NCBI GenBank assembly: GCA_019057865.1
Contig: JAHLWP010000035.1
Location: 1-42,765 of the forward strand
Length of the DNA stretch: 42,765 bases
Direction: 5' to 3'
DNA from: Promethearchaeota archaeon
Lineage (GTDB): Archaea; Asgardarchaeota; Lokiarchaeia; Sigyniarchaeales; SOKP01
The position numbers and the translations under genes are program-made. Below the pieces are notes generated by a model. It was not told where the DNA came from and ran no database searches. It worked only from the letters and a program-made list of their open reading frames with translations. Positions 728-35,500 of the stretch are shown piece by piece; positions within the stretch are counted from its first letter, which is position 1, and every line of letters starts with the position of its first letter.

Positions 728-859
728 AGCGGGGTGGGCTAGCCTGGTTTATGCCGCAGGGCTCATATGTGGTAAATATTTACCATGGAGAGACCCTGAG
801 ATCGTTCGTTCAAAAGTAAGATGCTGATTTCCAGCAGATTGAAAATCGAACCCCCGCTA
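728..859 (+). tRNA. Initiator tRNA-Met(CAT) with two introns (37/38: 768-792; 59/60: 815-845)
   Basis: Acceptor stem AGCGGGG/CCCCGCT with A1-U72, G11-C24, three G-C pairs in the anticodon stem, CAT at 764-766. Removing both inserts restores the CTCATAA and TTCAAAT loops. Confidence 0.93.
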
Positions 860-15813: not shown

Positions 15814-15944
15814 TGCAGGGAGTGGGATTTGAACCCACGTACTCCTGTGAGACCGGATTTCTCATCAGAAATTGCATTAATCAACGGAATTGTATTTAAC
15901 AGATCTTGAGTCCGGCACCGTTGACCAGGCTTGGTTATCCCTGC
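15814..15944 (-). tRNA. tRNA-Leu(CAA) with a canonical 37/38 intron (15859-15904, 46 nt)
   Basis: GCAGGGA/TCCCTGC acceptor, CCGGA-CTCAAG[intron]A-TCCGG, long variable arm, BHB central helix CTCA/TGAG. Confidence 0.95.
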
Positions 15945-25082: not shown

Positions 25083-25616
25083 ATGCAAAGTTCATGGATA
25101 TTTAAAGTAATTGTGGCAGGGGCTGGTGGAGTTGGAAAAACTGCTATGATAACTCGTTATTGTACAGGGAGATTCGAAGAAGGGTATAAAATGACTATAG
25201 GTGCAGGTTTTTATACAAAATCTGAAATTCTTGATACAGGAGAAGCTGTTAAAATGCAACTCTGGGATTTTGCAGGAGAAAAACGTTTTCGCGAACTTCT
25301 ACCCGACTATTGTAAAGGGGCTAGTGGAGCATTCATATGTTTTGATATAAGCGATTATGATACATTTAGAGAAATACCTGAATGGCTTAAGATCATCCGC
25401 CAAAAAGCTGGATTTATACCAATAATTCTTATGGGTATGAAATGGGATCTACCCAACCATGAAGTTGTTTACGAAATTGCAAATGATTATGCTGAAAAAG
25501 CTAAATGTAATCAGTGCGTATTTTGTTCTTCGAAAGGAAATATCAATGTAACAGATTCTTTTCAGGCCATGGCAAAATGGTTAATCTATTATGCCACTCA
25601 AACAAATATGATATAA
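25083..25616 (+). CDS. Rab-like small GTPase
   Basis: FKVIVAGAGGVGKT, YKMTIG, LWDFAGEKRF, MKWD, CSSK; no C-terminal prenylation motif. Confidence 0.9.
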   Translation: MQSSWIFKVIVAGAGGVGKTAMITRYCTGRFEEGYKMTIGAGFYTKSEILDTGEAVKMQLWDFAGEKRFRELLPDYCKGASGAFICFDISDYDTFREIPEWLKIIRQKAGFIPIILMGMKWDLPNHEVVYEIANDYAEKAKCNQCVFCSSKGNINVTDSFQAMAKWLIYYATQTNMI

Positions 25617-25707
25617 TATTAAAATTCTGATTTTAATCTGGTTTTATTAAACAGTAAAAGCTAAATATAATATTTAATAAAATTATTATAAAATAATCAT
25701 AAAAAGC

Positions 25708-25902
25708 GCCTCTGTAGCTCAGTTAGGTAGAGCACCGCCTAAATTATGTGCGCCTAAAGCACCCGGCTAAGTAAGCTTGATTTCACAGCTTCTCCGGAAG
25801 TTAACCGGGCGGTCGCATGTTCGATATTCTGTCTGATGATATCCAGACAGAACGGGTTCCATACAATGTTCGAGCTCCAAGCAGTGGGAAAAGCCAGGGG
25901 CG
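25708..25902 (+). tRNA. tRNA-Asn(GTT) with four introns (22/23, 33/34, 59/60, 63/64)
   Basis: Exons 25708-25730, 25758-25768, 25800-25825, 25859-25862 and 25893-25902 join into a 74-nt cloverleaf: GCCTCTG TA GCTC AGTTAGGTA GAGC A CCCGG CTGTTAA CCGGG CGGTC GCATG TTCGATC CATGC CAGGGGC G. G73 fits Asn. Confidence 0.88.
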
Positions 25903-25973: not shown

Positions 25974-26114
25974 TGCTCCCGCCGGGATTCGAACCCGGGT
26001 CGCAGGGGTTTTCCCTATAGACGAAGGAAATAGGTCTATATGAAGGCCCCGTATGCCACGCCCTTTCCTTCTCAATATTGAAGGGATTGATTGGCCAGAC
26101 TACACTACGGGAGC
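25974..26114 (-). tRNA. tRNA-Glu(TTC) with two introns (D-arm ~24/25: ~26054-26087; anticodon loop ~36/37-37/38: ~26009-26040)
   Basis: GCTCCCG/CGGGAGC acceptor, GTGT D-stem, CGGGG/CCCTG anticodon stem, CGAC variable loop, CCGGG-TTCGAAT-CCCGG T-arm, TTC at 26044-26042. Exact junctions are ambiguous by a few nt. Confidence 0.8.
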
Positions 26115-26613: not shown

Positions 26614-27612
26614 ATGAGTGTAAGGGAATCTTTAATTAAACATTTAACGTCTATTTTACGGGCATCTGAAGGAACAATCTTAGTAGTTCTATGTGATCAA
26701 AATGGTCTATCTATAGCTAAAATTGGCAGGAAAAGTGATATAGATTTAAATCCAAATCAAATAACAAGTTTAGCATCAGCAGCGTTTTCTGCTAGTCAAG
26801 AAAATTGGGAAGATTTGAACATTAAAGATCAAGTTATTTCATTTTCATATTTTGATAAGATTTGTTTGATAACAATAAGAATTAATGAAACTCTTCTTAC
26901 AATAGTTCATGATTATCATAAAGAATGGCCATTAGATGCTGATAATCTAGCTAGTTCTATGTATTATTTAAAACAAAAGTTAGGTGATTTTTTTGGGGGT
27001 GGCAGAGAATCTGAAAAAGAAATTGAAGAGTTTTGCGATAAAGTTCGAAGTGCTACGTATCTTTTCGGGATGGGATCAGAAGTTCCTTTTACATCATACC
27101 TCCCTGAAAAAATTGATAAATCAGATATCTTAAATTCTATAAGCACTGTTTTGGATTCTGTTCAAAATCCTATATTTATCAGGTATAGTTTAGTTAGCCC
27201 TTCTGGTTTGACTTTAGATGCTCGAGAAGTTAGTGGGAAAGATTTACCTGTTTCCGTTGAAGCATTTTCTGCAAATGCTAACGTAGCATTTCAAAAAATG
27301 AAAGAAGAATCAGAAGGAAGCTCAATTGGTGATCTCTTAAGTTATATAGCAATCGCAGGTCAAGATACTGAAAATTTTTATGGTCTTCTCGCAAGTCCTT
27401 CAGGAAAAATAAATTTTTCAAAAATGGAAGATACTTCAAATGTTCAGGAAATATCTTTTATTGGATTGTTTACATTAACATATGGAGGTATTCCCGTTAT
27501 TAGTGAAGCCAGAAATATTATTTTTTCAATATTAGAAATTCTTGGGAGTGAAAAAACGACACAGAACTTCATTGAGTCTATAAATGTTCTTACTAGTTAT
27601 AAATATGATTAA
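26614..27612 (+). CDS. Tandem roadblock/LC7 (MglB-like) domain protein
   Basis: Two repeats of the roadblock pattern: VVLCDQNGLSIA...ITSLASAAF and SLVSPSGLTL...FSANANVAF. Confidence 0.8.
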   Translation: MSVRESLIKHLTSILRASEGTILVVLCDQNGLSIAKIGRKSDIDLNPNQITSLASAAFSASQENWEDLNIKDQVISFSYFDKICLITIRINETLLTIVHDYHKEWPLDADNLASSMYYLKQKLGDFFGGGRESEKEIEEFCDKVRSATYLFGMGSEVPFTSYLPEKIDKSDILNSISTVLDSVQNPIFIRYSLVSPSGLTLDAREVSGKDLPVSVEAFSANANVAFQKMKEESEGSSIGDLLSYIAIAGQDTENFYGLLASPSGKINFSKMEDTSNVQEISFIGLFTLTYGGIPVISEARNIIFSILEILGSEKTTQNFIESINVLTSYKYD

Positions 27613-33525: not shown

Positions 33526-33628
33526 TGGACCTGACGGGAATTGAACCCGTGACCTCTTGAATGCAAGTCTTGTAAATCAAGCAAAATGCTTGTTTTTGTC
33601 AAGCGATCTTCCACTGATCTACAGGCCC
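33526..33628 (-). tRNA. tRNA-Ala(TGC) with a non-canonical 32/33 intron (33567-33597, 31 nt)
   Basis: GGGCCTG/CAGGTCC acceptor with G3-U70, CTTGA-C[intron]TTGCAT-TCAAG, BHB central helix CTTG/CAAG. Confidence 0.93.

Positions 33629-33881: not shown

Positions 33882-35500
<1,619 letters not shown>

Follow-up and report, generated by a model that had tools for sequence, protein, structure and literature searches.

A tRNA-Asn(GUU) gene predicted to be spliced at four BHB introns in an Asgard archaeon of the class Lokiarchaeia

The tRNA-Asn(GUU) gene analysed here extends over 195 nt (25708..25902, + strand), from G1 to the discriminator G73 and without an encoded CCA, in the window, by which we mean the whole stretch of 42,765 nucleotides under study. 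It is embedded in a 1-kb non-coding tRNA cluster; the gene for a Ras-family GTPase (25083-25616) is located upstream and a 332-aa ORF (26614-27612) downstream. The window has a GC content of about 27% and encodes an archaeal 16S rRNA together with typical Asgard signature proteins (Ras, Roadblock, RPA-like). The host genome, also AT-rich (29% GC), is a 4.26-Mb MAG of 87 contigs, with an estimated completeness of 99.67% and an estimated contamination of 5%. When the flanks of the tRNA-Asn gene were compared with those of close relatives, the 60 nt upstream (25648-25707) showed 0 differences from the related locus L004 and 5 from L002, whereas an ungapped comparison of the 60 nt downstream gave 20-25 differences. 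Such a divergence of the 3' but not of the 5' flank suggests the presence of a conserved, AT-rich promoter region upstream of the gene.

An earlier note on this DNA, made without database searches, had proposed that the locus consists of five exons and four bulge-helix-bulge (BHB) introns. Removal of positions 25731-25757, 25769-25799, 25826-25858 and 25863-25892 (27, 31, 33 and 30 nt) indeed left a 74-nt tRNA-Asn(GUU) in which all 21 of 21 stem pairs are formed, 16 of them G-C, and ARAGORN recognized this spliced 74-mer as tRNA-Asn(gtt) with a perfect cloverleaf. The five exons measure 23, 11, 26, 4 and 10 nt, all on the + strand. Exon 1 (25708..25730) provides the 5' strand of the acceptor stem, U8, A9, the 5' strand of the D-stem, the D-loop and G22, and exon 2 (25758..25768) provides A23-C25, A26, the 5' strand of the anticodon stem, C32 and U33. 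Exon 3 (25800..25825) comprises G34-U36, A37 and A38 and continues from the 3' strand of the anticodon stem, over the variable loop and the 5' strand of the T-stem, to U59 in the T-loop. The micro-exon CCAT (exon 4, 25859..25862) contributes just C60, C61, A62 and U63, and exon 5 (25893..25902) supplies G64, C65, the 3' strand of the acceptor stem and the discriminator G73. The introns are thus placed at Sprinzl positions 22/23, 33/34, 59/60 and 63/64. As the note had stated, none is found at 37/38, the anticodon loop is interrupted at 33/34 before splicing, and intron 4 breaks the 3' strand of the T-stem. The spliced product carries U8, A14, G18G19, U33 and a UUCGAUC T-loop, in addition to the GUU anticodon and G73, which are the identity elements of tRNA-Asn. 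The gene therefore displays what is expected of a functional tRNA-Asn, namely GUU, G73, the conserved tertiary nucleotides and, as described below, selection on the mature sequence.

All four introns were found to have a fully paired central helix (H, 4/4 with G-U allowed) with 3-nt bulges on both sides, and cutting after the second nucleotide of each bulge yielded the exons that join into the cloverleaf (21/21 pairs) through the same junctions as in intron-free orthologues; the helices and the cuts are as previously proposed. The central helices of introns 1 to 4 are AGGT/GCCT, CCGG/CCGG, TTCG/CGGG and TTCC/GGAA, and the outer helices h'/h have 4/1, 2/0, 9/3 and 2/2 bp, respectively, so that in every intron h, h' or both reach 2 bp. 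Intron 1 (25731..25757, +, 27 nt, 22/23) is of the HBh' type, with H formed by 25725-28 and 25752-55, bulges AGA and AAA, and h' formed by 25732-35 and 25748-51. Intron 2 (25769..25799, +, 31 nt, 33/34) is likewise HBh', with H at 25763-66 and 25794-97, bulges CTA and AAG, and an h' of 2 bp followed by a 1-nt bulge and 5 further bp. Lacking the exon-exon helix h, these two introns represent relaxed HBh' forms that need an enzyme of broad specificity. The other two have both outer helices. Intron 3 (25826..25858, +, 33 nt, 59/60) is a full hBHBh' motif, with H at 25820-23 and 25853-56 (two of its pairs being G-U), bulges ATA and TTC, and an h' of 9 bp (25827-35 with 25844-52); its h helix is the T-stem, which has 3 bp with intron 4 present and 5 bp once this is removed. 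Intron 4 (25863..25892, +, 30 nt, 63/64) has H at 25857-60 and 25887-90, bulges ATA and AAG, and h at 25855-56 and 25894-95. Intron 1 can be placed in seven ways and intron 3 in two without altering the spliced product; among these, only the placements of the earlier note form a BHB. When segments of the same lengths were placed at random, either in the locus or in the window, a canonical BHB was formed in just 0.8% of the cases per junction. The minimum-energy fold of the full precursor contains neither the intron 4 BHB nor the intron 1 BHB as such, and enforcing each of these motifs costs 1-6 kcal/mol; we treated this unconstrained prediction as uninformative, not as contrary evidence. BLAST of the four introns against their own genome retrieved no related copies and hence no sign of recent intron transposition.

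ARAGORN proved to be permissive, accepting 2,636 of 17,999 arbitrary two-deletion variants of a neighbouring tRNA locus, which makes its call on the 74-mer alone weak evidence. For this reason an independent search was written, in which a cloverleaf anchored on the T-arm is threaded over all BHB-like candidate introns, allowing up to 6 introns. Its unique top solution at the locus consisted of exactly the same four introns. In reversed-sequence controls of 586 regions, no solution with at least 12 G-C pairs was obtained, and five had 10-11. For solutions with 5-6 introns and AT-rich stems, the reversed controls matched as often as the real sequence, so a minimum of 11 G-C pairs was required for acceptance. 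A listing of GC islands made without an ORF mask returned 1,543 islands and was uninformative.

BLAST of 60 relatives revealed 29 further tRNA-Asn loci, all from the same genus. Nearly all of them have, as in the window, the Ras-type GTPase gene, the 332-aa ORF or both as neighbours, indicating that the loci are orthologous. Spliced alignment and, separately, the threading finder assigned 0, 1, 2, 3 or 4 introns to each orthologue. L022 and L025 have no intron; those with a single intron carry it at 59/60 or at 63/64; two-intron orthologues also exist; L005-L007 have three (22/23, 33/34 and 59/60); and four are present in the window gene, L002, L004 and the partial L003. This four-intron layout thus recurs in three other species-level genomes (G030, G033 and G012), derived from other assemblies, and L011 has another combination of four inserts. 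The positions occupied in the genus as a whole are 14/15, 18/19, 22/23, 33/34, 37/38, 59/60 and 63/64. Intron 1 is shared with L002, L004 and L005-L007 and missing in most congeners, and exons 1 and 2 are uninterrupted in orthologues without it, such as L008, L012, L022 and L025. Homologues of intron 2 occur in L002 and L004-L011, and most congeners have an intron at 59/60. Intron 4 has 23 of its 30 bases in common with the 63/64 intron of L016/L017, and L014 and L018 also harbour a 30-nt intron at this position; in orthologues devoid of intron 3 or intron 4, the CCAT bases directly adjoin those of the neighbouring exon. Each of the four junctions of the window gene is therefore confirmed by natural genes in which the same two exons are contiguous. 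No single BHB fits a 60-nt insert found at 63/64 in L010 (G035) and L011 (G022), which may correspond to two tandem or nested introns; if so in L011, the G022 gene would have five introns.

The mature sequences are nearly invariant across the orthologues and their stem changes are compensated. The sole difference between L025 and the spliced 74-mer concerns pair 6-67, which is C-G in L025 and U-A in the window gene, and paired stem changes are also seen in L026, L028 and L029. With the Rfam tRNA model, the intron-free orthologues scored 66.5 and 64.9 bits (G008:C27:7491-7564; G007:C60:1389-1462), an indirect reply to the covariance check that the note had asked for. Within the four-intron clade (L002, L003 and L004), 17 substitutions were counted in 121 intron positions versus 2 in 74 exon positions, the latter both at position 59, a non-conserved site in the T-loop. 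No substitution fell in a central helix, 3 of the 4 changes in h' helices keep the pairing through G-U, and most of the others map to loops. The tree of the flanking genes was moderately resolved; well-supported sister pairs nevertheless differ in their introns (L024/L027, L020/L018 and L009/L012), indicating a fast intron turnover. A wider search detected the split tRNA-Asn pattern in other genera of the same family, and in members of the neighbouring family, to which a complete 4.4-Mb genome belongs, an uninterrupted match over tRNA-Asn positions 7-65. The 0-4 intron series provides a fine-grained natural series for BHB intron gain and loss in the closest prokaryotic relatives of eukaryotes.

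The suspicion that such a gene would be missed by standard finders was borne out, since neither ARAGORN nor the Rfam tRNA model, even in a permissive local search, reported anything at the raw locus. We also looked for any other tRNA-Asn in the genome, as the note had advised, and none appeared in a spliced-alignment scan, in ARAGORN, in Rfam or in a threading census of GC-rich non-coding regions. In the scan, run with the 74-mer on both strands of the whole genome, this locus scored 116 and the next best 40. Among their approximately 30 genome matches, ARAGORN and Rfam found no tRNA-Asn, and they also missed those for Asp, Glu, Gln, Met, Pro, Trp and Tyr(GUA). The census resolved 39 plausible tRNA genes and recovered Tyr, Trp, Pro, Gln, Asp, Glu(CUC), Arg(GCG), Leu(UAA) and the initiator. 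Ten of these genes contain no intron, 18 contain one, 7 two and 2-3 three, so that at least 29 of the 39 are interrupted, in line with the heavy interruption of tRNA genes in other Asgard archaea. These intron counts are lower bounds, because some of the "long variable arms" are probably unremoved introns. The tRNA-Asn gene was the only four-intron gene confidently resolved; a four-intron tRNA-Sec and two six-intron solutions that also emerged were considered dubious. The census assigned, among others, 2 introns to Tyr(GUA), 2 to Trp(CCA), 2 to Pro(GGG) and 3 to Leu(UAA). Loci of this kind, for instance C18:57599-57744 (+), C18:87689-87823 (-), C23:182371-182503 (+) and C69:10646-10800 (+), were not correctly identified by ARAGORN or by Rfam above its cut-off, and the Leu(UAA) locus overlaps a sub-threshold Rfam match. 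A set of 40 high-scoring intron-free tRNAs from relatives covered no more than 16 isoacceptor types, most of which had already been identified in this genome. The Rfam model detected 12-30 tRNAs per genome in 41 genomes of the genus, even in those rated 100% complete, which indicates that hidden tRNA genes are a property of the whole genus. Inferences on metabolism or completeness drawn from tRNA counts will consequently mislead for these Lokiarchaeia.

Taken together, these data make it highly probable that the locus is a functional, and apparently the only, tRNA-Asn(GUU) gene of this archaeon, whose precursor would be spliced at four BHB introns. Three other explanations were weighed against this one. 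Deleting four chosen segments of GC-rich non-coding DNA might by chance satisfy a tRNA finder, and the permissiveness of ARAGORN towards deletion variants of the neighbouring locus lends this idea some plausibility. It is hard to reconcile, though, with the full set of stem pairs and conserved nucleotides, with four cuts that all fall at canonical BHBs (0.8% each by chance) and with the reversed-sequence controls, in which nothing comparable was seen; it is refuted by the orthologue series, whose intron-free genes are identical to the spliced product bar one compensated pair, and we regard it as exceedingly unlikely. No more credible is an assembly or binning artefact in which chimeric joins created the inserts. 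The source is a short-read metagenome assembly, but the same 195-nt layout, with scattered substitutions, is present in G030, G033 and G012, and in a run index 16 DNA runs from several studies hold at least two thirds of the sampled words of a 901-nt stretch, a measure of word sharing only.

A decaying pseudogene, whose inserts are never removed and whose role is taken by a tRNA-Asn gene at another place (unassembled, split or too divergent to be found), has slightly more in its favour. The contigs of the RNA runs cover no junction, standard tools find only about 30 tRNAs in the genome, whose tRNA set is incompletely known, and in a MAG of 87 contigs with 5% contamination an unassembled second tRNA-Asn is possible. 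Against it, strong purifying selection acts on the exons, in contrast to the diverging introns and 3' flank, the BHB helices are kept across four species, intron-free orthologues with the same mature sequence occupy the same syntenic site, and neither the sensitive spliced scan nor the census of this 99.67% complete genome disclosed another Asn-like locus. Overall, we consider a pseudogene very unlikely.

The genome encodes the enzymes that a functional, spliced tRNA-Asn gene calls for. It has two EndA paralogues, 29% identical to each other. The first (C71, L031:1171-1773, 200 aa) found its best match among catalytic alpha subunits from crenarchaeal heterotetramers (3P1Z_B, E = 3e-35). It retains the Tyr/His/Lys triad as well as the Crenarchaea-specific loop's K-P-R, which aligns with K44 and R46 of A. 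pernix, the residues responsible there for broad specificity. Experiments have tied this loop to the cleavage of non-canonical and relaxed motifs (PMC3241643), and its conservation points to an EndA of broad substrate range, probably able to cut relaxed motifs. In the second (C69, L032:1189-1812, 207 aa) the catalytic His is replaced by Ser, so this protein looks like a structural beta subunit. An RtcB ligase is also present (561 bits). The predicted (alpha-beta)2 architecture agrees with that described for most Asgard genomes (bioRxiv 10.64898/2026.10.13.758758). Contigs from four RNA-library runs, which cover only small shares of the stretch, span no tRNA-Asn junction and are neutral on expression, so splicing itself is what we infer from the gene and its enzymes. 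Transcription would yield a precursor of about 195 nt, from which EndA, with its two subunits in an (alpha-beta)2 assembly, would excise the four BHB introns; RtcB would then join the five exons, and CCA would be added afterwards.

Introns 1, 2 and 3 have mutually independent motifs, but those of introns 3 and 4 interlock. The two T's of the intron 4 central helix TTCC/GGAA are the last two bases of intron 3, and both G's (25855-56) of its 2-bp h helix belong to intron 3 as well. Positions 25855-25860 are in this way used by the intron 4 motif and by H, the 3' bulge and h of the intron 3 motif, and these six common nucleotides make the two motifs mutually exclusive, alternative conformations, which implies that introns 3 and 4 are removed sequentially. 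With intron 3 removed, the intron 4 central helix falls to 3/4 pairs and its h to 1; with intron 4 removed, intron 3 forms the full hBHBh' with a 5-bp T-stem, which is then the predicted minimum-energy fold. From sequence and folding, the two introns would thus leave one after the other, most favourably with intron 4 first, an order that would keep the 4-nt micro-exon covalently attached throughout. The 59/60 intron ends in CGAAAA in most relatives having only this intron, and also in the three-intron L006, where it is clearly homologous (sharing ATT...CAGAACG). In the four-intron clade it ends in CGGGTT, and the four changed bases are exactly those that pair in the intron 4 motif. We tentatively propose that recognition of intron 4 may depend on intron 3, that splicing of 4 may precede that of 3 and that the micro-exon may never be free, a reading that we hold to be possible but somewhat less probable than its contrary. 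No description of one archaeal tRNA intron depending on another for its recognition was found in the literature searched. If true, such a dependence would exist in a genus with 0-4 introns per orthologue, and a 4-nt exon between introns with overlapping motifs offers a clean test case for ordered EndA/RtcB splicing.

The earlier note had given three as the highest number of introns known in an archaeal tRNA gene. This holds as the maximum for the Thermoproteales (reviewed in PMC4033280; Sugahara 2007/2008), but not as an overall limit, since up to five have been reported in Asgard archaea. Valentin-Alvarado et al. 2024 (PMC11291895) found introns in 92-95% of the tRNA genes of three Asgard genomes and several in over half, and a preprint of October 2026 (bioRxiv 10.64898/2026.10.13.758758) reported for Freyr-, Jordi- and Atabeyarchaeaceae a mean of 2.2 intervening sequences per gene, with a maximum of five, 30% being missed by tRNAscan-SE. 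In the light of these later Asgard reports, the four introns that the note had called extreme are remarkable rather than unprecedented. The locus resembles the genes of the preprint in having several non-canonical BHB introns of ~20-30 nt at D-arm and T-arm positions, in being missed by standard annotation, in the two EndA paralogues of its host and in the repeated recent gains; it differs in its host, which belongs to a class (Lokiarchaeia/Promethearchaeia) that the main text of the preprint does not name. Heavily interrupted Asgard tRNA genes were hence already known, and this locus adds a well-documented case from another Asgard class. A congeneric 0-to-4 series at one syntenic locus, a 4-nt micro-exon and interlocked, overlapping motifs are described neither in the 2024 paper nor in the main text of the 2026 preprint. 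With the Thermoproteales the locus shares the interruption of a single tRNA gene at several non-canonical positions by BHB or relaxed-BHB introns, as well as an (alpha-beta)2 EndA with the Crenarchaea-specific loop (PMC3241643). The introns of that order form sequence families suggesting transposition, whereas the four found here have no similar copy in the genome; the host moreover belongs to another phylum and is AT-rich (29% GC), and its gene has four introns against a maximum of three. Multiple BHB-type introns at unusual positions also characterize the nuclear tRNA genes of the red alga Cyanidioschyzon merolae, as far as the published description goes (PMC3728597), but in a eukaryotic host and often in permuted genes; this comparison is by description only.

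Other interrupted tRNA genes were noticed in the window. One lies at 25974-26114 (-), 72 nt downstream of the tRNA-Asn gene and on the opposite strand; its D-loop contains an insert of ~38 nt and its anticodon loop one of ~32 nt. It gave an Rfam match in the local search only (37 bits), was miscalled as Arg(tct) by ARAGORN, which accepted thousands of its arbitrary deletion variants, and received no canonical solution from the cloverleaf-threading finder. An initiator-like tRNA-Met(CAU) at 728-859 (+), which neither ARAGORN nor the window-wide Rfam gathering search picked up, has two introns: the anticodon loop is interrupted by one of 25 nt (H 3/4, h' 7) and position 59/60 by one of 31 nt (H 4/4). 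The 16S rRNA gene (33929-35420, -) is closely followed by a tRNA-Ala(UGC) with a 31-nt intron (33526-33628, -); no 23S rRNA comes after these two genes within the window, which suggests that the rRNA genes are unlinked. Finally, a tRNA-Leu(CAA) at 15814-15944 (-) is interrupted by just one BHB intron, of 46 nt (H 4/4, h 6).
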